Below, one piece after another: positions 11,538-22,298 of a stretch of 64,000 nucleotides of DNA. Position numbers and translations under genes: made by a program. The stretch covers positions 192,786-256,785 of the forward strand of contig CBDICO010000001.1 in NCBI GenBank assembly GCA_965277365.1. Direction: 5' to 3'. The stretch is from Phormidesmis sp. (GTDB lineage Bacteria > Cyanobacteriota > Cyanobacteriia > Leptolyngbyales > Leptolyngbyaceae). A model generated the notes under the pieces. The model searched no databases and had not been told where the DNA came from. It saw only the letters and a list, made by a program, of their open reading frames with translations. The number at the start of each line of letters is the position of its first letter. The stretch's first letter is position 1.

Positions 11538-11607
11538 TGGAGATTGAAGCATCGATTTGCAGAATTCATTACACTGAAACAAACCGCAATCATTTGATTC
11601 AACGCTT

Positions 11608-12477
11608 ATGGCAGTTCGTAAAGACACGATTTTTGAACAATATTTGGCACCGATCGCGCGTCTCTTGATCGACGAACCCGCACTGCGACGATTTTATGAA
11701 AGCATCAACTGGCAAACCGAAAGCGATCGCTTCCGAGATCCTCAACTCACCTATCCCGATTACTACAGCCGTCAAAACTTCCACAGCATCGAAAACGGCT
11801 ATCTCAATATCAGTGCTGCGGTGTCTTACGATCCGATCACGCAATATGCGCTGCCGCCTAACGAGTCTTGGGTGCGTCAGAGCTTAATCGACGCGATTCA
11901 AGTCAAACCTCGTCGCATTCTCGACTTAGGCTGCGGCACAGGCTCCACCACGCTTTTGCTCAAACAAGCCTTTCCCGACGCTGAAGTCATCGGCATCGAC
12001 TTGTCTCCCTATATGCTCGTTGTTGCCGACCACAAAACAAAACAATTAGGACTCAAGATTGAATGGCAGCAAGGCAACGCCGAACAGACCCGCTTCCCAA
12101 ATGCCTCTTTTGATTTAGTCACCGCATCGCTGTTGTTCCACGAAACACCACCCGCGATCGCCGCGATCATTCTCCAAGAAAGCTATCGCCTCCTCACCCC
12201 TGGCGGTGAAGTCTTGATTTTGGATGGCAACCAAAAAACCCTCAGACAAACCGAGTGGCTAACCCAAATTTTTGAAGAACCCTACATTCAAGCCTATGCA
12301 ACGGGCAGCATCGATGCCTGGATGGGCACGGCGGGCTTTGGCGCAATTCAAACCGAGGATTTTTGGTGGATTCATCAAGTCACCCGTGGCGTAAAGCCTG
12401 TATCGAATCAGCGATCGCAGCCCGTCAAGTTTTCAGATGTAGAAACCCTAAATGACGGGCAGTGGGCAATGGGCTAG
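11608..12477 (+). CDS. Class I SAM-dependent methyltransferase
   Basis: RILDLGCGTG, GIDLSPYML and LLFHETP motifs. Confidence 0.9.
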   Translation: MAVRKDTIFEQYLAPIARLLIDEPALRRFYESINWQTESDRFRDPQLTYPDYYSRQNFHSIENGYLNISAAVSYDPITQYALPPNESWVRQSLIDAIQVKPRRILDLGCGTGSTTLLLKQAFPDAEVIGIDLSPYMLVVADHKTKQLGLKIEWQQGNAEQTRFPNASFDLVTASLLFHETPPAIAAIILQESYRLLTPGGEVLILDGNQKTLRQTEWLTQIFEEPYIQAYATGSIDAWMGTAGFGAIQTEDFWWIHQVTRGVKPVSNQRSQPVKFSDVETLNDGQWAMG

Positions 12478-12541
12478 AAAAAAGGGAATACAAAAACTTG
12501 TAAAATAGAAATCTGTCCCTTCCTTGGTTCCGATTTCTTAG

Positions 12542-13261
12542 ATGCTGAAGGCTGTTCTATTTGATTTCAACGGGGTCATTATCAATGACGAACCGCTTCA
12601 CGAAAAGTTGATCGAGCAGCTTCTCGTCGAAGAAAATCTTCGCCCCAAGCCAGGAGAATTTCGGGAAATGTGTCTAGGGCGCAGCGATCGAGCCTGTCTC
12701 TCTGATTTGCTAAAAAGTCGCGACAGAATGGTCAGCGATCGCTATCTCGATGACCTGATTAGTCGTAAAGCCAAAGCCTATGTACAGCAACTTTCAGGCT
12801 TAGAAACATTACCGACTTACCTGGGGCTAGACGATTTTATCTTTAATCTTCGGGCGACTCCCTGCAAGTTAGCGATCGTCAGTGGTGCCAGCCTGAGTGA
12901 GATCGAGCTTGTATTAGAACGATGCCAATTGCGACAATATTTCACGGTAATCATATCGAGCAATGACATCACTATGAGCAAGCCCGAACCCAATGGCTAT
13001 CTTCTGGCAGTCGAACGGTTAAATCAAGCGTTTCCTGATCTCGATTTACATCCTGCCGAGTGTTTAGCGATCGAAGACACCTTCGCGGGCATTGCCGCCG
13101 CAAGACGGGCAGGCATTCCTGTGGTTGGGGTTGCCAACACTTATCCATTCCACATGTTGCAGCGCTGCGCCAACTGGACGGTAGACTATCTCTCAGATCT
13201 AGAACTCGATCGAATTCAACACGTTTTCTCTAAAGAAAATATTGATTCTAGAGCAAGCTAA
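12542..13261 (+). CDS. HAD-family phosphatase
   Basis: LFDFNGV, SKPEP and AIEDTFAGI motifs. Confidence 0.9.
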   Translation: MLKAVLFDFNGVIINDEPLHEKLIEQLLVEENLRPKPGEFREMCLGRSDRACLSDLLKSRDRMVSDRYLDDLISRKAKAYVQQLSGLETLPTYLGLDDFIFNLRATPCKLAIVSGASLSEIELVLERCQLRQYFTVIISSNDITMSKPEPNGYLLAVERLNQAFPDLDLHPAECLAIEDTFAGIAAARRAGIPVVGVANTYPFHMLQRCANWTVDYLSDLELDRIQHVFSKENIDSRAS

Positions 13262-13288
13262 TTTCAAGATGATAAACTACTAAAGCTA

Positions 13289-13361
13289 GGGGAGTTAGCT
13301 CAGTTGGTAGAGCGCTGCGATCGCACCGCAGAGGTCAGGGGTTCGATTCCCCTATTCTCCA
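13289..13361 (+). tRNA. tRNA-Ala(CGC)
   Basis: Acceptor GGGGAGT/ATTCTCC; anticodon stem CTGCG/CGCAG around loop ATCGCAC; T-loop GGTTCGATTCC. Confidence 0.93.
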
Positions 13362-13372
13362 TTTATATTTTC

Positions 13373-13517
13373 TGTCCATTAAAGAATTAATCAGCAGTTT
13401 TAAAGCATTAATTTCCGAAAACTGCTGAAATGCTGATTCTTTCGTCTTGCAACACAATTTTTATGTAGAATACCTCGTCTTTATTCCCAAATAGCCAGTT
13501 TTAAAGCATTAATTTCC
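13373..13517. mobile_element. Putative transposon end of a type V-K CAST (tRNA-proximal)
   Basis: TGT at 13373, 63 nt after the GTA PAM (13307-13309); perfect 22-bp direct repeat CAGTTTTAAAGCATTAATTTCC at 13395 and 13496, plus a related TTAAAGAATTAAT next to the TGT. Confidence 0.7.
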
Positions 13518-13584
13518 AAAATTTGGCTGGAAAGTTATACCGAGCTGAATTGGGAGCCTAACCCAGTAAGACTTTTAGACTTTT

Positions 13585-13619
13585 TGCAGTGCGATCACAG
13601 CGCTCCTTCCAACCTACCC
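13585..13619 (-). CRISPR. Delocalized homing crRNA unit (truncated repeat plus tRNA-Ala-matching spacer)
   Basis: Minus strand GGGTAGGTTGGAAG followed by GAGCGCTGTGATCGCACTGCA, matching tRNA-Ala 13310-13330 at 19/21 (16/17 over the first 17 nt) with GTA 5' of the target. Confidence 0.88.
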
Positions 13620-13676
13620 TTGATCTGTTCAGATTATCTAAGTTGCCGAGCGCAGAGCAAAGCAACTGATTAAAAG

Positions 13677-13859
13677 CTTTCAATTTACTTGCTGCTAAAA
13701 AGGCGATCGCAACGATGCCCTGAGGATGGCGAACCACACGAGAGTCTTTCTTTCAACCTACCTGCTGCTAAAAAGGCGATCGCAACAAATCAGCTGCAGT
13801 CGATCTCAACGTTGCCACGGTTCTTTCAACCTACCTGCTGCTAAAACGGCGATCGCAAC
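13677..13859 (-). CRISPR. Type V-K-like CRISPR array: 3 repeats, 2 spacers of 36 nt
   Basis: 37-nt repeat GTTGCGATCGCCTTTTTAGCAGCAGGTAGGTTGAAAG at 13750-13786, with variants at 13823-13859 (1 mismatch) and 13677-13713 (3 mismatches); the 3' GGTTGAAAG end is typical of Cas12k repeats. Confidence 0.9.
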
Positions 13860-14065
13860 TGATGCCGCTCAACTGCTGATGTGGTCTTGCTCCAATTTGT
13901 AAAACTGACCAACCTCAAATATCGTTGGTTGCTGTCCCTGAAATAGGTGGCAAATTTACAAAACGGAAATGCTCTCACATCATAAGAACCGGCGACAGCA
14001 ACGCTACTGGGCATTTTGGCAAACGTCCCAGGAATTTTGCTCCCGCTTCGGTTTGCCAGGTCGAT
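13860..14065 (-). promoter_or_regulatory. Probable CRISPR leader
   Basis: Lies 5' of the first repeat; minus-strand CCGAAGCGGGAGCAAAATTCCTGGGACGTTTGCCAAAATGCC resembles recalled cyanobacterial leader motifs. Confidence 0.5.
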
Positions 14066-14070
14066 GGTTT

Positions 14071-14144
14071 GGGTAGGCTCAACCCTTGCTTGGGGCGATT
14101 TGGTAGCTGCCATGACAAGTAAACCCTGTATCCTTAATAATGAG
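14071..14144 (-). ncRNA. 3' remnant of a V-K tracrRNA, cut by IS6
   Basis: Minus strand TAAGG...GCTACCAAATCGCCCCAAGCAAGGGTTGAGCC shares block order with the recalled ShCAST tracrRNA 3' end (UAAGG...GCUACUGAAUCACCCCCGAUCAAGGGGGAACCC); expected position. Confidence 0.55.
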
Positions 14145-14967
14145 GGTTGTGTCACAAAAATGGTAGGGTGGGGAGTCTAAATTTTCTCTGACCTTAACCT
14201 AAATGGCATCCCAATCCCTGTTTAAGTGACGGCATTTCTTGCCCGAAATCATTGTGTTGAATGTGCGATGGTACTGTCGCTACGCTCTGAGCTACCGGGA
14301 TTTAGAGGAGATGATGGCGGAGCGAGGGGTGGAGGTGGATCATTCCACGATTCACCGATGGGTGTTGAGCTACGCGCCAGAACTGGACAAACGAGTTCGA
14401 CCCCACCTGAATCCGACGAACGATTCGTGGCGGGTGGATGAGACGTATATCCAAATCAAAGGAGTGTGGAAATACCTGTACCGAGCGGTGGATTCGCTCG
14501 GCAACACGTTGGACTTCATGCTGAGTGCAAAGCGGGATGGCAAGGCAGCCGCCCGGTTTTTCCGCAAAGTGCTGAAAGCGACTCATACTCAAACTCCACG
14601 GGTAATCACGGTCGATAAGAACGCTGCCTACCCAGTGGCAATTGAAGCGTTGAACGCAGATGAAACGCTGGCAACAGAGACCGAATTACGGCAGAGCAAG
14701 TACCTGAATAACATCATCGAGCAGGATCATCGCAACATCAAGCGATTAACAAAGCCAATGATGGGATTTGGGTCGTTTAACAGTGCAAGACGTACCTTGA
14801 GAGGAATTGAAGCGATGAGTATGATTCGCAAAGGACAAGTAAAGGGAATCAGCCAAGGGGAGAGTGTTTCTCAAGCGAAGTTTATTGAACGAATCTTCGG
14901 AATTAGCGCTTAACGGAATGCGAACGAGATACTTCGTTTGTCACTAAAAAGTATTTGCGACACAACC
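14145..14967 (+). mobile_element. IS6-family element (same family as 9339-10168), premature stop
   Basis: IRs GGTTGTGTCACAAAA / TTTGCGACACAACC; ATG at 14203 with TGA at 14227 (codon 9); DDE motifs intact downstream; no TSD. Confidence 0.93.
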
Positions 14968-15261
14968 GTCGCGGGAGCCGTGAATGACTTTCAGTACTTC
15001 AATGCCTGCTTCAATCGGACGATAGAAAATCAGATAATCCTCAAAGCCTTTCAGTTTCCACATCCGCATTCCCGTGAGCAGGGGAAGATCGAAATCTCGA
15101 ACGACCCCTAACTTGGGTTGAGTCAGAAGTAACGCAAAGGCGCGATCGCAAGCCTCGTAGAATCGCAATCCTGCATCCATGCCTGAATAGCTTGCAATCT
15201 GGAGCGCTTCTCGATCGATATCTTGATCCGCGATCGGACGAATGACAACGCGACGCTTCAC
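14944..15261 (-). CDS. RelE/ParE-family toxin; its last residues are replaced by IS-derived codons
   Basis: VVIRPIADQDI, YLIFYR and IEVLKVIHGSRD, then GCVANTF encoded by the IS6 IR. Confidence 0.88.
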   Translation of the reverse strand: MKRRVVIRPIADQDIDREALQIASYSGMDAGLRFYEACDRAFALLLTQPKLGVVRDFDLPLLTGMRMWKLKGFEDYLIFYRPIEAGIEVLKVIHGSRDGCVANTF

Positions 15262-15521
15262 GCTTCACGGTGTCCCAATCGCTGCATTAAGCTCTGGCGC
15301 TTCTTCAGCCAGTATTCGGGAGTGACCTCGATCGACTCGCCCGATTGCAGGCTTTCTAACAGCAAGGCTTCGAGTTTTTGATCCTCTCGGCGCTTTTGGT
15401 CTTCGCGAATCAGTGCCCGAAGGTACTCACTGGGAGTGCTGTACTGGTCTTCCACCACCCGTGTTTCAATGAATTCCTTCATCGGCTTTGGCAGAGAGAT
15501 GTTCAGCGAAGTCATGTCCAT
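15258..15521 (-). CDS. ParD-family (CC2985-like) RHH antitoxin
   Basis: MTSLNISLPKPMKEFIE...YSTPSEYLRALIREDQ; 4-nt overlap with the toxin. Confidence 0.9.
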   Translation of the reverse strand: MDMTSLNISLPKPMKEFIETRVVEDQYSTPSEYLRALIREDQKRREDQKLEALLLESLQSGESIEVTPEYWLKKRQSLMQRLGHREA

Positions 15522-15531
15522 AACGTTCTCG

Positions 15532-15560
15532 ACTGTCAGTTACTGTCATTAACTGACAGT
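15532..15560. promoter_or_regulatory. Operator-like palindrome upstream of parD
   Basis: Perfect 11-bp arms ACTGTCAGTTA-N7-TAACTGACAGT. Confidence 0.6.
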
Positions 15561-15686
15561 ATCGCAAAAATAGCGCAGATTGGGGAGAAAAATGCCCGAC
15601 TTGCATCGTGAGTCTGAAGAATTGGCTTGCTCACCTGCGCACGTCCGCAGAAGTCCAGGGCGAAACCCTGATTCTGCCGTGAAGAG

Positions 15687-15804
15687 TGTGCCAGTTGAGT
15701 GACGGTAGACTGCGGGTTTCGGTTCGTCTCAAAACCGTCTCATTTTGAGATTTAGTCCAAAAGCGGTCCAGAGGCGTTTTTTAGGGTCGATTGTGCCAGT
15801 TGAG
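15687..15804. repeat. Recombination-site-like array downstream of the integrase
   Basis: TCTCAAAA-N8-TTTTGAGA (15727-15750) bracketed by the 13-bp direct repeat TGTGCCAGTTGAG (15687 and 15792). Confidence 0.45.
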
Positions 15805-16020
15805 CTAGGCACCTGGAAGGACGATCGTTCGAGGACGGCTCCTCTGAGGCTTGAAAGCGGGTTGGGTGTCCACGATCTTAGGGCATCGCTCGGTGGTCGG
15901 AGACTGACTTATCGACCGATCTCGCGATTGCAAGACGATTTCCGCTCTCTCTCTTGCAACTGGGTGTAGCGTTGAGGTTCCATACGGCTGAGTTTTGAGA
16001 ATCTGCTTATTGGTGGTCAC
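15805..16020 (-). CDS. Small hypothetical protein overlapping the integrase 3' end
   Basis: 71-aa ORF with a GTG start, co-oriented with the integrase. Confidence 0.35.
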   Translation of the reverse strand: MTTNKQILKTQPYGTSTLHPVARERAEIVLQSRDRSISQSPTTERCPKIVDTQPAFKPQRSRPRTIVLPGA

Positions 16021-17008
16021 CCTCGCTCTCGCCGATCGCCTTCAAATACGCCTCCCCTGCTGCCTGCTTAAACACGCCTTTGGTGTAGCGTTCAAACACC
16101 TGATCGCTCTTAATCCCCATCAACTCCTTGCCAAACAGCGGGTCTACCCCTCGGCGAGTCACCTCCGTCCCAAACGTGTGCCGGAACCGATGCGGATGCA
16201 TATTCTCTACCCCCGAGCTCGCCCCCAGCTTCTTCACCATCTTATGCAGTCCCTTGTAGCCCAACCGTTTTCCCACACTCTTTGGGTCTTGTGCCAAAAA
16301 CATTGGACTTTCTGGCATCGGCTCGAACACCCCACTCTGCTGCCGTCGCCACTCTAGATAGGCTTCCAAATGCGATCGCGCCTCCCGACTCAGCGGCACC
16401 TCACTCACGTTTTGCCCCTTGGATCGATGCACCGTCAAAATCTTGCCATTCCAACTTCCGACATCCAGCGCGGATGCCTCCGATGCCCGTAGCCCATGAC
16501 TGAGTACCGCCACGATCGCCCGATCGCGCACCCGCGTCCGCTCGTCCAACTCCAGCACCGCCCAAATTTCACTCAAGTCTTCCGCCTCAATGTGCGCGGC
16601 TTGCGGTTCCGGTTGCCGCTCCAAGTCGATCGCATCGGTCGGCAAGGGCTGATTCATCGGGTAGCCATTGCTGCGTCTGAGCCAGCTATAGAATGATCGC
16701 AGCGTATTGAGGGCATGATTCACCGAAGTTGGTTTCAATCCCTTCAGCTTCAGATCCCGTCGATATTTGCCGATATGGCTGGGAGTCACATCGAGCCAAG
16801 ACTGACCCGACCAAGCCGCAAAGCGTTGGAGTTGCCCGCGATAGGTGCGCTGCGTATTCTCTGCCTTCCCTGTCTGGCGTAAAAATTCCTCAATCTGCCA
16901 GTGCCTCAGATCGGGGGGTTCTTCCCAGTGGGGTGTTTCCACCTTTCCCCCCTTTATGGAGACAATCACGATCGGCAAAACGGGTTCAGCGGGTGCAGGA
17001 TTCATCAC
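16007..17008 (-). CDS. Tyrosine recombinase (XerC/D-like, with an N-terminal SAM-like domain)
   Basis: RDRAIVAVLSHGLRASE, RSKG, HPHRFRHTF and ERY motifs. Confidence 0.93.
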   Translation of the reverse strand: MMNPAPAEPVLPIVIVSIKGGKVETPHWEEPPDLRHWQIEEFLRQTGKAENTQRTYRGQLQRFAAWSGQSWLDVTPSHIGKYRRDLKLKGLKPTSVNHALNTLRSFYSWLRRSNGYPMNQPLPTDAIDLERQPEPQAAHIEAEDLSEIWAVLELDERTRVRDRAIVAVLSHGLRASEASALDVGSWNGKILTVHRSKGQNVSEVPLSREARSHLEAYLEWRRQQSGVFEPMPESPMFLAQDPKSVGKRLGYKGLHKMVKKLGASSGVENMHPHRFRHTFGTEVTRRGVDPLFGKELMGIKSDQVFERYTKGVFKQAAGEAYLKAIGESEGDHQ

Positions 17009-17033
17009 AAAATCAGAGGTTGGGTGATTTTCA

Positions 17034-17061
17034 GGTGCAGATAATTTCTCTTATCTCTATC
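17034..17061. other. dif-like 28-bp recombination site upstream of the recombinase
   Basis: GGTGCAGATAA-TTTCTC-TTATCTCTATC (11-6-11); the left arm matches the E. coli dif XerC arm GGTGCGCATAA at 9/11. Confidence 0.55.
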
Positions 17062-17129
17062 AGAGTATTCTCAGAATAATAGCAAGTATTAGATAAAAGC
17101 CTTTGCTTACCAGCGATAATCAGGGAAGT

Positions 17130-17501
17130 TGTACAGTGCCAAATTAAGGCTCTTCCGAGCTTTTGGTGATCCAGAATTTTGAGCAACCGAAACTCAGCAG
17201 GTGCGTTGGATGAATCTGAAATTACGCCACCTCAGCTACGAGTTCGCTCAATTTTGAGGATGTTGTAGAACATAGATCACCAAAAGCTTGGAAGAGCCCA
17301 AATTAAATGACATCGAGACAAATTCGTGTCGCTGAGCAAACCCCTCTCCGTTGCAGGGTTGCAGAGAGAGTTCGCTCAGCAGCTTAGCATCAGGTCAGCA
17401 GGATGGACAAGCTGGCTTTAGGCGGAAAAGCAAGCCAGATCTAGCCTTGCTCCTTTAATGACACTAATGTGTCTTCACGACCAATAAAAAGTCACTGTAC
17501 A
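17130..17501. mobile_element. Gene-less mini-element with V-K CAST/Tn7-like ends
   Basis: TGTACAGTG...CACTGTACA termini with internal GAC-N-GTC TnsB-type sites at both ends; flanks GAAGT/CCTGG do not form a TSD. Confidence 0.75.
17148..17298. mobile_element. 151-bp MITE inserted in the mini-element end
   Basis: 24-bp IRs GGCTCTTCC(G/A)AGCTTTTGGTGATC (1 mismatch); 8-bp TSD CAAATTAA at 17140-17147 and 17299-17306. Confidence 0.9.
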
Positions 17502-17560
17502 CCTGGTTTGAACCTGCGATGATTGCACGTTTGACGATTTAGGATTGCAGGTCGCTACCG

Positions 17561-18001
17561 CTACTGGCACCCAAAAACGGAAACTTGATACGCAGTATTT
17601 CGGTCGCCTGTAATCCGAGTATTAATCTGATAAGGTTGCCGATTCGTCGGCGTTCGAAAAGACTGGTCGTAGCGGTAGAAACGTTTTGCCTCGATTGATC
17701 GCGACACCGCCTTCGCGGATGAACCATCATTGTATTTGAGATTCACTTCGATCCCGTAGTGAGAATTGTTTTCAGGAATTGCTTGAGCGATATAACTATT
17801 AAAATGGGTGCCAGTGGGCACGGCAAAATCTGTGTTTGCGTTGGTGTTGTTTAGAGTAATGACCTTCCGAATCAAGCGCTGATGGGTGGAAACTTCCCTG
17901 AAGTAAGTGCAGCTTCGGGGTTGCGCCTGCGCGGGTTGATACAGCATCACGGCTGCTATAACCATAGAAAGTCCGGCTGGAATGCTTAAAAACTTTTTCA
18001 T
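17561..18001 (-). CDS. Secreted hypothetical protein
   Basis: Signal peptide ending PAQA-QP; beta-rich ~120-aa mature part. Confidence 0.75.
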   Translation of the reverse strand: MKKFLSIPAGLSMVIAAVMLYQPAQAQPRSCTYFREVSTHQRLIRKVITLNNTNANTDFAVPTGTHFNSYIAQAIPENNSHYGIEVNLKYNDGSSAKAVSRSIEAKRFYRYDQSFRTPTNRQPYQINTRITGDRNTAYQVSVFGCQ

Positions 18002-18250
18002 AGCTCTGCGAAACCTCGCTTGTAGGGTGGCTAAAGGCTGAAAGCAGCCTTCTCACAGAGATTAATAGCACAACGCCTGTAGATTTACATCTCCTGTTTT
18101 GAAGGAGGTTCGTTGTCGGTTGATTCCTCAAAGCTTTCTCCAGCTACCCTAATCTGTTTGAGGGGCGCGACTATCCAGTACAACAGGCACTTGTCTCAGT
18201 TCGTTCAAAGGCAAGAAATCGAGTCCCCACTAACTTTTTCAAATCGATCA

Positions 18251-18419
18251 GGGGTGTAATCAGGGTGCGTGAAATTTCGTGCCCTGAGAGCCTGAAACAC
18301 TTAATTCCGCGTATCATGCTTGAAGCATTCTCCTGCAAAGTGATTAATCGTGGAAAGCTCACTCCGTCAAAGGTTCAGCAGTTGGTGGCCCTTTAAAGTA
18401 GTTATCCTGATCACACCCC
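18251..18419. mobile_element. 169-bp MITE-like element with GGGG (Tn3-like) termini
   Basis: GGGGTGTAATCAGG ... CCTGATCACACCCC (13/14 IR); no exact TSD (GATCA/GAATA). Confidence 0.6.
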
Positions 18420-18571
18420 GAATAGGCAACTCGGACATGAAGAAATAATGCGCCAACAGTGTCAGCGGTGCGATGAGATTGAAGCAATTGAGACGGGTGC
18501 AAGGGGAATTAGATGATTGAGGTAGTAGAGATCGGTCTGTTTAGGTTCTCTAATGGGTAAGAACATTACTC

Positions 18572-18600
18572 AAACCTCCCAAGGCTTTGAGAGGTTTTTT
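18572..18600 (+). terminator. Hairpin with T-run
   Basis: AAACCTC...GAGGTTT followed by a T-run. Confidence 0.45.
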
Positions 18601-18875
18601 ATTGTCTATTGGGGGTTGAGTTAAACTCAACCACAAGAAGTAATCGAAACCGATTGAACAATGGTGACATAGCCTTGTCCTCTTGAAAGAGTGATGTGAG
18701 TGCTACAACACTTCACGATCAAGGTCACTTTGGTATGAACGAAAAGCATTCAATGAATTTTTCAAGGCTTTGAATCTTTGCCGCAGAAATTCAAATTCAC
18801 GACCGCTAACTTCCCAGCAAAAAAAGCCACAATCGCTCTCGGTTGTGGCTTTTCATCTCCCATATTTTCCAAAAA

Positions 18876-19091
18876 TCACGCCGCTGGCCTTACAAAATTC
18901 ATCCCTCTAAGTGGCTTGCATCCTTCAAAGCTCATCGCGTCCTCCTCGAGAAACCCTGCAATCATCATCTCAATCACCAGTTCAATCGGATACTCAATCT
19001 GGGCAGCGTAGGCGCGAAGTTCTAGCTGGATTTTTTCAGGCAGTGTATTGAGGATGATCTGGGCGGATTCGGGCGAAAGATGCTCTGTCAT
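18876..19091 (-). CDS. Small RHH/CopG-like protein, paralog 2
   Basis: 71 aa; 28/60 ungapped identity to 19088-19300; 4-nt overlap with it. Confidence 0.75.
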   Translation of the reverse strand: MTEHLSPESAQIILNTLPEKIQLELRAYAAQIEYPIELVIEMMIAGFLEEDAMSFEGCKPLRGMNFVRPAA

Positions 19092-19300
19092 GCTTTTCGT
19101 CCCGGTCTACAGTCAGCAAACCCGATCGCGTTAGGGTCAAGGTATCCCGTGATCGCCATTTCCAAGATCGCTTCAACGGGATAATCTATCTCAGCAGCAC
19201 GAGCGATGATCGCTGCTCTGATTCGCTCTGGTAGCTGTTCCAAGATGACTTGCCCTGCTACTGGAGATAGCTGCTCATACTGGTTGGAGGTTGTTTGCAT
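19088..19300 (-). CDS. Small RHH/CopG-like protein, paralog 1
   Basis: LPERIRAAIIARAAEIDYPVEAILEMAITGYL helix-turn-helix pattern; starts 3 nt after the nuclease stop. Confidence 0.75.
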   Translation of the reverse strand: MQTTSNQYEQLSPVAGQVILEQLPERIRAAIIARAAEIDYPVEAILEMAITGYLDPNAIGFADCRPGRKA

Positions 19301-19303
19301 GGC

Positions 19304-19654
19304 TTACTCCATTGGAATTTGAGCGTTATAGGGCGGTTCTGTGGCTCTCAGAATCATCCCCTCTAGCTCTGATAATAACGCTGGGTTTCCCCACCGACCT
19401 AGAACTTGAAAAATAATTCGCACATCAGCAGGGTTATAAAGATCGAGCCACGCCCAAAGAAAGGCTTTATGACCTCCGTTGAAACGGATGGCGAGATTAT
19501 TCGTTTTCCCGATATACAAAACCCCGTAGGAGCGATGACGAACCGCATAGATGCCGGGGCGACTAGGCAGAGCGTCAAACTCACGGGTAATTTCAATTGC
19601 CTCATCAAAGTCTGAGAAAGCAAGGCAGTTCAATATTTCTGTAGCGTTATTCAT
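19304..19654 (-). CDS. GIY-YIG nuclease
   Basis: PGIYAV...LYIGKTNNLAIRF...ELE...PPYN. Confidence 0.88.
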   Translation of the reverse strand: MNNATEILNCLAFSDFDEAIEITREFDALPSRPGIYAVRHRSYGVLYIGKTNNLAIRFNGGHKAFLWAWLDLYNPADVRIIFQVLGRWGNPALLSELEGMILRATEPPYNAQIPME

Positions 19655-21063: not shown

Positions 21064-21895
21064 GGTATTGTCAACTTAACTGGAACGTAGAATAATCGTA
21101 CTGATCCCATTTAGATCGCGACTCCTTGCTCATGTACTCCCGTCACCGCTTTCCTAACGAAATCATTAGCTATTGTGTCTGGCTTTATTACACGTTTCCC
21201 CTGAGCTACCGAGACATCGAGAAAATGATGCGGTATCGGGGGATTGAGGTGACTTACGAAACGATTCGGGAGTGGTGCCAGAAATTCGGGCAGCAGTATG
21301 CCAATCAGCTTCGGCGCAAACGTCCTTACATTACCGATAAATGGCACTTAGATGAAGTGGTCGTGACGATCAAAAAGGTGCAATATTATTTGTGGCGAGC
21401 AGTGGATTCTGAGGGGAACGTGCTGGACGTACTGCTGCAACGGCGGCGAGATACAGAAGCAGCCAAGCGATTCTTCCGCAAACTGTTGAAAAAACAAGGC
21501 TTCGTGCCACGGGTAATCGTCACCGACAAGCTGAAGAGTTACGAAGCGGCGAAGAAACAGGTGATGCCGAACGTAGAGCATCGAGCGCACAAGGGATTGA
21601 ACAATCGAGCGGAGAACTCGCATCAGCCCACACGAGTGCGGGAACGGCGAATGCGACGATTCAAATCCCCGGGGCAAGCGCAACGATTTCTCTCAGCTTT
21701 TGGACCGATTCGAGATCACTTCCACCCGAAACAACATCACCTCACCGCCAAACGCTATCGCGAACAACTGCGCCAACGCTTTCAAGATTGGCGAGAAGTG
21801 GTTTGTCTAAATTCTGCTGCATGAACTGAGTGCCCCTGCCGATTCGGGAATAATTGTGCTGAATTCTGAACAGACCCGGTTAAGTTGACAGTACC
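21064..21895 (+). mobile_element. IS6-family element, apparently intact (transposase 21126-21824)
   Basis: IRs GGTATTGTCAACTTAAC / GTTAAGTTGACAGTACC; WHLDEV, VIVTDKL and NNRAENSHQ motifs; no TSD. Confidence 0.94.
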
Positions 21896-21977
21896 GTTGT
21901 ATTCAAGCAAAGACTAAATTCTTTCAAAGGCTAGAATCCTTAATTGTCAATCATTTCAGCTACACAACGAGAGTTTA

Positions 21978-22109
21978 TCCAGATTTTTTCACCTAGTCTG
22001 CTTTATTTTCCAGATTTTTTCACTTAGTCTGCTTTTAAATTTCACTTAGTCCGCTATCATGAAGTCTGGAAGAGCCATGATTTCGTTCAAAAGTTTTCAC
22101 TTAGTCCGC
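21978..22109. repeat. Four direct copies of TTTCAC(T/C)TAGTC(C/T)GC
   Basis: 27-bp near-identical pair at 21978 and 22009 (31-nt period), plus cores at 22040 and 22095. Confidence 0.8.
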
Positions 22110-22298
22110 GAACTGGAAACATTGCCGTAAATAAACTGCAATCGTTCCTGTTCAAAACATGGCTCGAATTGAGTTCTCTGCTAGAAATAAAATGCGGCGG
22201 CAAACTCTACTCAAAATAGCGTAAAAACCGCTCTGAGAAGGACTTACAACGATTATTAAAAGAGCGATAATAAGAATATTAGAGTCAAGAGAAAACAA

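Follow-up and report, generated by a model that had tools for sequence, protein, structure and literature searches.

The CRISPR-side stump of a type V-K CRISPR-associated transposon, probably truncated by an IS6-family element, at tRNA-Ala(CGC) in a Phormidesmis genome

The CRISPR-associated transposons (CASTs) of type V-K in cyanobacteria, ShCAST and AnCAST among them, were reportedly described by Strecker 2019, Saito 2021, and Hsieh and Peters 2021. They were also described by Ziemann 2023 (PMC9938897), where the CRISPR-side transposon end is described as facing the tRNA gene and where, in AnCAST, the trans-activating CRISPR RNA (tracrRNA) and the array form one transcript that begins 413 nt ahead of the first repeat, at a transcription start site (TSS) 35 nt after cas12k; the AnCAST array has no promoter of its own, and this upstream TSS is the sole one for tracrRNA and array. 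The 37-nt V-K repeats have the 3' consensus wkrGGyGGGTTGAAAG, anti-repeat 1 of the tracrRNA sits about 120 nt upstream of anti-repeat 2, and in the V-K_V2 system of Anabaena sp. PCC 7120 the tracrRNA is interrupted by an IS5-family element (PMC12416283). The ends of V-K and type I-D repeats are conserved in common (bioRxiv 10.1101/2021.02.06.429022), and ShCAST was found in E. coli assays to use CRISPR RNAs (crRNAs) from co-resident orphan arrays and type I-D repeats (Hu et al. 2024, PMC11300857). Here, the remains of one such element were analysed beside the tRNA-Ala(CGC) gene in a stretch of 64,000 nucleotides from Phormidesmis sp., referred to below as the window (contig CBDICO010000001.1 of assembly GCA_965277365.1; in our handles, G000:C1:192786-256785).

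The locus is like ShCAST and AnCAST in its tRNA site, GTN protospacer-adjacent motif (PAM), insertion 60-66 bp downstream, CRISPR-side end turned toward the tRNA, truncated repeat (R*) carrying an anchor spacer of 17 nt, small array whose 37-nt repeats end GGTTGAAAG, and tracrRNA 3' anti-repeat complementary to the repeat. It is unlike them in lacking cas12k, tnsB, tnsC, tniQ and a second end, in keeping just the final 74 nt of a tracrRNA, and in having an R* that ends in GGAAG and a repeat that reads GGTAGG where the V-K consensus is GGyGGG. With a probability of roughly 0.85, we read positions 13373-14144 (772 bp) as a dead-end CRISPR-side stump of a type V-K CAST, truncated by an IS6-family insertion sequence (IS) and standing at tRNA-Ala(CGC). 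It is a decaying remnant of an already known kind of element. Its features, in order from the tRNA, are as follows.

13289-13361, + strand: tRNA-Ala(CGC), the attachment-site gene, intact (ARAGORN; Rfam tRNA model, 66.1 bits).
13307-13309, + strand: GTA PAM, of GTN type (direct reading of the letters).
13310-13326, + strand: 17-nt protospacer GAGCGCTGCGATCGCAC in the anticodon arm of tRNA-Ala, with a weaker match extending to 13330 (inverted repeat).
13368-13372, no strand: TTTTC, the presumed 5-bp target-site copy on the tRNA side (by position only, the opposite end being missing).
13373-13521, + strand: tRNA-proximal (CRISPR-side) transposon end, with terminal TGTCCATTAAAGAATTAAT and two internal 26-nt repeats resembling TnsB sites (repeat family, homologous ends).
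13589-13605, - strand: 17-nt homing (anchor) spacer GAGCGCTGTGATCGCAC directly after R*, matching the tRNA at 16/17 positions with the mismatch at position 9.
13606-13620, - strand: truncated repeat R* (AGGGTAGGTTGGAAG), ending GGAAG rather than GAAAG (reading, repeat finder).
13677-13859, - strand: mini CRISPR array, with R1 at 13823-13859, S1 at 13787-13822, R2 at 13750-13786, S2 at 13714-13749 and R3 at 13677-13713 (repeat finder).
13860-14070, - strand: array leader, with a conserved motif at 14015-14058 that is found at many V-K loci.
14071-14144, - strand: 74-nt 3' stub of the tracrRNA gene, holding the last hairpin and anti-repeat 2 (AGCCTACCC; + strand GGGTAGGCT at 14071-14079) (alignment with V-K loci).
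14145-14967, + strand: IS6-family insertion sequence truncating the CAST, with its transposase gene at 14239-14913 (NF033587, PF13610).

The insertion geometry was set out in the original prediction, which had been made from the letters alone; the PAM, protospacer, TGT at 63 nt, repeated end motifs, truncated repeat with tRNA spacer, and three-repeat array that it named were all recovered in their places by direct reading, ARAGORN, Rfam and a repeat finder. The element terminus, TGT at 13373, lies 11 nt beyond the tRNA end (13361), and the gap from PAM to terminus is 63 nt. The inverted match between 13310-13330 and 13585-13605 covers 19 of 21 positions (16/17 within the canonical 17-nt anchor). 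The marks of derivation from a V-K CAST, namely R* with a tRNA-matching anchor of about 17 nt, a GTN PAM and an end at 60-66 bp, are thus present here as 16/17, GTA and 63 nt. Among the intact V-K loci compared, GTA or GTT was the PAM for most homing targets.

The end itself has close homologues. Its 26-nt motif copies, at 13395-13420 and 13496-13521, are 96% alike, and its terminal 19 nt (TGTCCATTAAAGAATTAAT) are the same as at the CRISPR-side end of a complete CAST on contig C12 of the same genome. Ends in G001, G003, G354 and G356 match it at 74-93%, and both the terminal 19 nt and the layout of two sites 101-103 nt apart recur in these as well as at the C12 end.

This complete V-K CAST occupies C12:337803-376691 (38.9 kb; loci L020 and L021) at tRNA-Val(CAC) (337721-337792). 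It begins with TGTCCATTAAAGAATTAAT at 337803, 62 nt after a GTA PAM, and closes with an inverted terminus at 376691; a 5-bp duplication, TCATA, stands on both sides, and its internal sites are 103 nt apart. Its R* is GGTGGGTTGAAAG, with a spacer matching tRNA-Val, and is followed by a two-repeat array and the tracrRNA region. At 828 aa, its Cas12k is of unusual length (NF038191, 649 bits, covering profile positions 2-627 of 629) and is accompanied by TniQ (169 aa), TnsC (316 aa) and TnsB (628 aa). The element fixes the natural orientation, with the CRISPR-side end toward the tRNA. The stump is like it, and like its orthologues in G001 and G003, in the terminal 19 nt, the site layout, the order R*-array-leader-tracrRNA and an alignable 3' part of the tracrRNA. 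It is unlike the C12 element in its tRNA target, its repeat body and its anti-repeat 2 (UCCCCCC in C12, CCUACCC in the stump); DNA identity is about 76% over the first 120 nt, and only the C12 element is complete (828-aa Cas12k, 5-bp target-site duplication). The C12 cargo includes large genes of 1172, 752, 614, 523 and 1782 aa and an IS, and the orthologues in G001 and G003 likewise stand at tRNA-Val.

The protein machinery was sought in the window with profile searches and with tblastn using the C12 proteins, and no cas12k, tnsB, tnsC or tniQ was found there, as had been predicted; PF09299, PF05621 and PF06527 had no match inside C1:192786-256785. In the whole genome, NF038191 at E<=1 gave a single match for cas12k, on contig C12, tblastn agreed, and no remnant was found elsewhere. 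The two C12 ends excepted, no inverted copy of the 13373 terminus that could serve as its partner was present in the window or the contig. What would make a complete V-K CAST, that is, an adjacent cas12k, tnsB, tnsC and a short tniQ, and two Tn7-like ends, is therefore absent. The genome-wide check that had been proposed accordingly yielded one complete V-K CAST, with the sole cas12k, and no second occurrence of the window's repeat.

The array consists of three 37-nt direct repeats at 73-nt spacing, of which R3 is degenerate (87%) and carries three G-to-A changes within its anti-repeat-pairing portion. On the minus strand the repeat reads GTTGCGATCGCC(G/T)TTTTAGCAGCAGGTAGGTTGAAAG, the V-K form, and it was found at no other place in the genome; when self-targets were sought, the array spacers gave no significant match in the genome. 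Repeats at 24 cas12k-linked loci have the form GTYKC...GGnGGGTTGAAAG, a few with CTGAAAG, and the window repeat fits this form with one G-to-A change. Against the published 3' consensus (PMC12416283), the window shows GCAGGTAGGTTGAAAG, again with that one departure (G to A), which is compensated in anti-repeat 2; assignment of the repeat to a type other than V-K, which would have spoken against a CAST origin, was thus not borne out. This 3' consensus does not by itself discriminate V-K, because type I-D repeats have the same ends.

The leader holds a motif of about 44 nt (TGGCAAACCGAAGCGGGAGCAAAATTCCTGGGACGTTTGCCAA, minus strand; window 14015-14058; see also loci L086-L089, L092, L093) that is conserved at many V-K arrays and has no Rfam match. 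In relatives without cas12k nearby, it was also seen downstream of cas6-cas4-cas1-cas2, genes read from open reading frame (ORF) translations, and ahead of host CRISPR arrays, where it sits about 15 nt after a TATAAT box; a leader feature at about -44 bp common to type I-D arrays has been proposed (bioRxiv 10.1101/2021.02.06.429022). At two intact V-K loci, L090 (G002:C42) and L061 (G001:C25), a solitary repeat-like copy, ...CAGGTTGAAAG, stands between tracrRNA and array, and the AGAGGTTTGCCAAAAG that follows it is a repeat of the 3' half of the leader motif.

The predicted leader-like and tracr-like sequence held for the leader (13860-14070); the tracr part proved to be merely the 74-nt 3' stub at 14071-14144. 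This was determined by aligning the window with the cas12k-to-array regions of the C12 element, G001:C97, G278 and two public contigs, all of the large-Cas12k group. The window sequence enters the tracrRNA about two thirds of the way in, at CTCATTATTAAGGATACAG, and keeps the last hairpin (CCCCAAGCAAGGG) and anti-repeat 2 (AGCCUACCC; + strand 14071-14079). The stump's repeat (GGUAGGUU) has its complement in anti-repeat 2, where a U stands opposite the G-to-A change, and the duplex of the two is predicted at -14.1 kcal/mol. The end of the first repeat lies 257 nt from anti-repeat 2 in the window and 242-246 nt from it in the intact loci compared. The C12 tracrRNA is about 220 nt long from its likely start, placed by similarity, to anti-repeat 2. 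Anti-repeat 1 is gone from the window, because it would sit about 120 nt upstream of anti-repeat 2, beyond the IS6 junction. Only 285 nt are retained between that junction and the first repeat, and no sigma-70-like promoter was predicted on the minus strand; by analogy with AnCAST, the native promoter and transcription of the stump have probably been lost. A tracrRNA on the + strand, suggested by a motif resembling a segment of the ShCAST single-guide RNA, was ruled out, since G018, the five large-Cas12k loci and PMC12416283 all place it on the minus strand.

The window R* ends TTGGAAG. Among 17 clear homing units from intact loci, not one has the GGAAG ending: TGAAAG closes 15 of them, and the other two read TTGAAA, the next G being counted in the spacer. 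The homing spacer matches its target without interruption over 14-18 nt in all 17 intact units, vs 8 nt at longest in the window. The mismatch at guide position 9 was considered as proof of decay and rejected, the apparently intact element of G354 having likewise one internal homing mismatch, at position 10. Guide decay in the stump is suggestive and unproven. The claim that the RNA guide hardware is still intact was not upheld: the tracrRNA has lost about two thirds of its length at the IS6 junction, anti-repeat 1 and the upstream region included, R* ends GGAAG, and the array repeat is predicted to pair less well with the C12 tracrRNA.

Five same-genus relatives have an identical tRNA-Ala and, from a few bases after it, unrelated sequence, so that the sequence after 13373 is not one shared with CAST-free relatives. 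The relative G018 has the orthologous methyltransferase-HAD-tRNA-Ala(CGC) flank, and after it comes an intact V-K CAST from a different lineage, whose R* (GGAGGGCTGAAAG) carries a perfect 17/17 spacer to the same tRNA-Ala protospacer, whose end lies 65 nt from the PAM and whose cas12k is about 0.9 kb away. The proposal that a V-K CAST homed to tRNA-Ala(CGC) here and lost its protein genes is borne out, the geometry matching both the C12 CAST (62 nt) and the G018 CAST with its identical protospacer. At the same tRNA-Ala PAM in G003 (L036, G003:C23), a further Tn7-like terminus, TGTACATTCGCAC..., begins 60 nt after the PAM and is followed by a transposase that looks, by eye, to be of ISL3 type; the tRNA-Ala site is a recurrent target. 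At G356:C273 (L072), one CAST end is nested within another at tRNA-Cys.

An intact ancestor of the stump was sought in three ways. A DNA search of the family's genomes, 90 in all, gave end or leader pieces only; Cas12k homologues in public assemblies, and two of the contigs carrying them, were relatives of the C12 element and not of the stump; and when collections of metagenomes and genomes were scanned for exact copies of the repeat's 3' half, single chance matches in non-cyanobacteria were all that came up. Synteny with G002 was uninformative as to the original downstream flank, the genomes being too rearranged.

The IS6 element was identified from its transposase (NF033587, 274 bits against a cut-off of 125; PF13610, 1e-45). 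It is 823 bp long, with boundaries drawn from about 20 diverged copies in the genome, the best of which is at most 83% identical to it. Its inverted repeats, GGTTGTGTC(A/G)CAAA, match at 14/16 positions. The 8-mers that flank it, ATAATGAG and GTCGCGGG, differ, and there is thus no 8-bp target duplication; a deletion or rearrangement brought about by the IS suits such flanks better than a simple insertion does.

From these observations, the following course of events is proposed. A complete V-K CAST would once have inserted 63 bp downstream of the GTA PAM in tRNA-Ala(CGC), CRISPR-side end toward the tRNA, guided by its own truncated-repeat homing crRNA; this step is established by the geometry and by the comparison with intact elements. 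Later, an IS6-family element would have landed in the tracrRNA gene, and everything beyond would have been lost, most simply by IS6-mediated adjacent deletion: about 145 nt of tracrRNA with anti-repeat 1, the upstream TSS region, cas12k, cargo, tniQ, tnsC, tnsB and the tnsB-side end. We infer this second step because there is no target duplication, a single IS copy stands at the site, and the rest is absent from the genome. There would remain one transposon end, the homing crRNA unit, the three-repeat array, the leader and the 74-nt tracrRNA stub. With one end and no transposase, the stump cannot move, and with neither Cas12k nor a complete tracrRNA it cannot make its own guide complex; most likely it is inert and drifting.

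Evidence on the population was obtained by placing public contigs on positions 11600-19600. X1 (97% of sampled words) is the likely source culture, and X2 is organism B, a strain whose flank is 99.6% identical (9 differences in 2,178 nt). In X2, a 2,566-nt contig matches 13831-14144, stops matching exactly at 14144 and continues into unlike sequence, and depth is 0-1.06 across 14003-15070 and zero across 15071-16939. In X1, a 6,087-nt contig matches 13848-14144 and then also runs into unlike sequence, at a word depth of 4.2 vs 16-18 in neighbouring unique sequence; the IS6 stretch is covered in X1. An IS6-free allele is thus present in a near-identical strain and, as the minority form, in X1. 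The low depth of the alternative contig, the coverage of IS6 and the lack of a second cas12k in the assembly (13 contigs, 100% complete) make the IS6 form the majority. Possibly, the IS6-free allele persists at about 20% in a polyploid culture, in which case the loss has been caught in progress.

Several points weigh against reading the locus as a dead-end stump cut off by IS6. A deletion is the proposed mechanism, and the same picture would come from an inversion or from IS copies recombining with one another, with loss afterwards. An intact tracrRNA and cas12k in the IS6-free contigs are at most presumptive, as is the silence of the stump. Its guides show only slight decay: between R1 and R2 there is a 1-nt difference, at 16/17 the homing match does not fall below that of one apparently intact element (G354), and the GGAAG handle could still pair by G-U wobble with the presumed CUUUC of the tracrRNA, taken here to be anti-repeat 1.

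Some of these points lead to other explanations. The stump might function in trans, its crRNAs (expressed, for example, by read-through) joining the C12 tracrRNA and Cas12k to give a second homing address, or its end, which carries near-identical TnsB sites, flagging the site as occupied (target immunity); we consider this unlikely. Such use is possible in principle because Hu et al. saw ShCAST transposition supported by orphan arrays, a precedent that extends to type I-D repeats (PMC11300857). The genome has a resident complete CAST whose Cas12k is intact and whose terminal 19 nt are those of the stump, R1 and R2 are near-identical, and the predicted duplex of the stump's homing repeat with C12 anti-repeat 2 (-7.7 kcal/mol) comes close to that of C12's own homing pair (-8.7). 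The array repeat, however, is predicted to pair with C12 anti-repeat 2 at only -4.6 vs -11.9 kcal/mol for the cognate pair; the region of the upstream native TSS has been deleted (by analogy with PMC9938897) and the minus strand has no predicted sigma-70-like promoter; and R* ends GGAAG, unlike its comparators, with a mismatch at guide position 9. A stump kept as a protein-less satellite of the tRNA-Val CAST, its homing crRNA, transcribed by read-through from upstream, working with the resident tracrRNA and Cas12k and its TnsB-binding end marking tRNA-Ala as occupied, is, if anything, the more doubtful form of the idea. On the dead-end reading, the only relevance remaining to the stump would come through the complete tRNA-Val CAST, for which binding of the stump's crRNAs or recognition of its end is conceivable in principle.

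That the IS6 junction is unrepresentative, the real genome having an intact CAST and the assembly having taken a minor or chimeric path, is very improbable. The 6,087-nt contig of X1 departs after 14144 and X2 has that form only, but the depth of 4.2 vs 16-18, the covered IS6 and the absence of a second cas12k from the complete 13-contig assembly argue for the assembled path. Hardly any credence is given to an ordinary orphan host array of type I-D/III-like kind that lies near the tRNA by chance and is not CAST-derived: V-K and type I-D repeat ends are alike (bioRxiv 10.1101/2021.02.06.429022) and the leader motif also occurs at cas1-cas2-linked arrays of relatives, yet it is contradicted by an R* with a 17-nt tRNA anchor, by the correctly spaced GTN PAM, by the piece of tracrRNA whose anti-repeat matches, and by a Tn7-like end homologous to that of a complete V-K CAST. 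A complete non-autonomous mini-CAST, with both ends and guides, without proteins and mobilisable in trans, is just as hard to credit. One good end with TnsB-like sites is present, as is a separate small element with paired Tn7-like termini at 17130-17501, but the window and the contig hold no inverted copy of the 13373 end besides the C12 ends, and the termini at 17130-17501 are different (TGTACAGTG).

To the right of IS6, a ParE-type toxin gene and its upstream partner (window 14944-15521) are 97% identical to C8:718385-719010, and the homology of this toxin-antitoxin pair to C8 begins precisely at the IS6 boundary. The ParE frame extends by its final codons into the inverted repeat of IS6, and the insertion has therefore altered the ParE C-terminus. 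Farther right, the window has a tyrosine recombinase and a small multi-copy element, as well as a GIY-YIG gene, an ADP-ribosylglycohydrolase and another IS6 that differs from the first (about 21064-21894), and sequence conserved in same-genus relatives picks up again near 22.2 kb. A small element at 17130-17501 has inverted termini TGTACAGTG...CACTGTACA, unlike the end at 13373, with Tn7-like motifs inside; this genome, G001 and G003 contain parts of it in multiple copies. Four direct copies of TTTCAC(C/T)TAGTC(T/C)GC (window 21960-22115), immediately to the right of the second IS6, resemble an array of binding sites at the end of a different transposon.

Elsewhere in the genome, three further CAST end fragments of a sister lineage (TGTCCATTAAAGAGCTATTTGTC) were found, at C2:35594(-), C12:8251(-) and C13:900062(-). 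The first has the terminus TGTCCATTAAAGAGCTATTTGTC and two internal sites, 14 nt after tRNA-Pro(CGG), with an apparent transposase ORF about 260 nt in that is IS66-like by eye; the second is a tnsB-side end with a truncated tnsB, and the third is a near-copy of the second.

Set beside the described cases, the stump is like V-K_V2 in being a natural V-K CAST disabled by an IS in its tracrRNA gene, and unlike it in that V-K_V2, as described in PMC12416283, shows interruption only, whereas the stump has lost everything beyond the IS, here of the IS6 family. It is like the orphan arrays of Hu et al. 2024 (PMC11300857) in being a cas-less array that shares its genome with a complete V-K CAST, and unlike them in being CAST debris with a homing guide and a transposon end, and in the weaker predicted pairing of its array repeat. 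It thus offers a clean natural example of the death of a V-K CAST, in which an IS6 in the tracrRNA gene took the protein machinery and left the end and guides. For annotation, a V-K-type array with a tRNA-matching anchor need not mean an active CAST. The resident complete CAST and the three end fragments make this genome a convenient natural setting for guide sharing between CASTs and for target immunity from a leftover end; were the stump a satellite after all, a dead CAST would be giving a living one a second address, or shielding its own old site from it.

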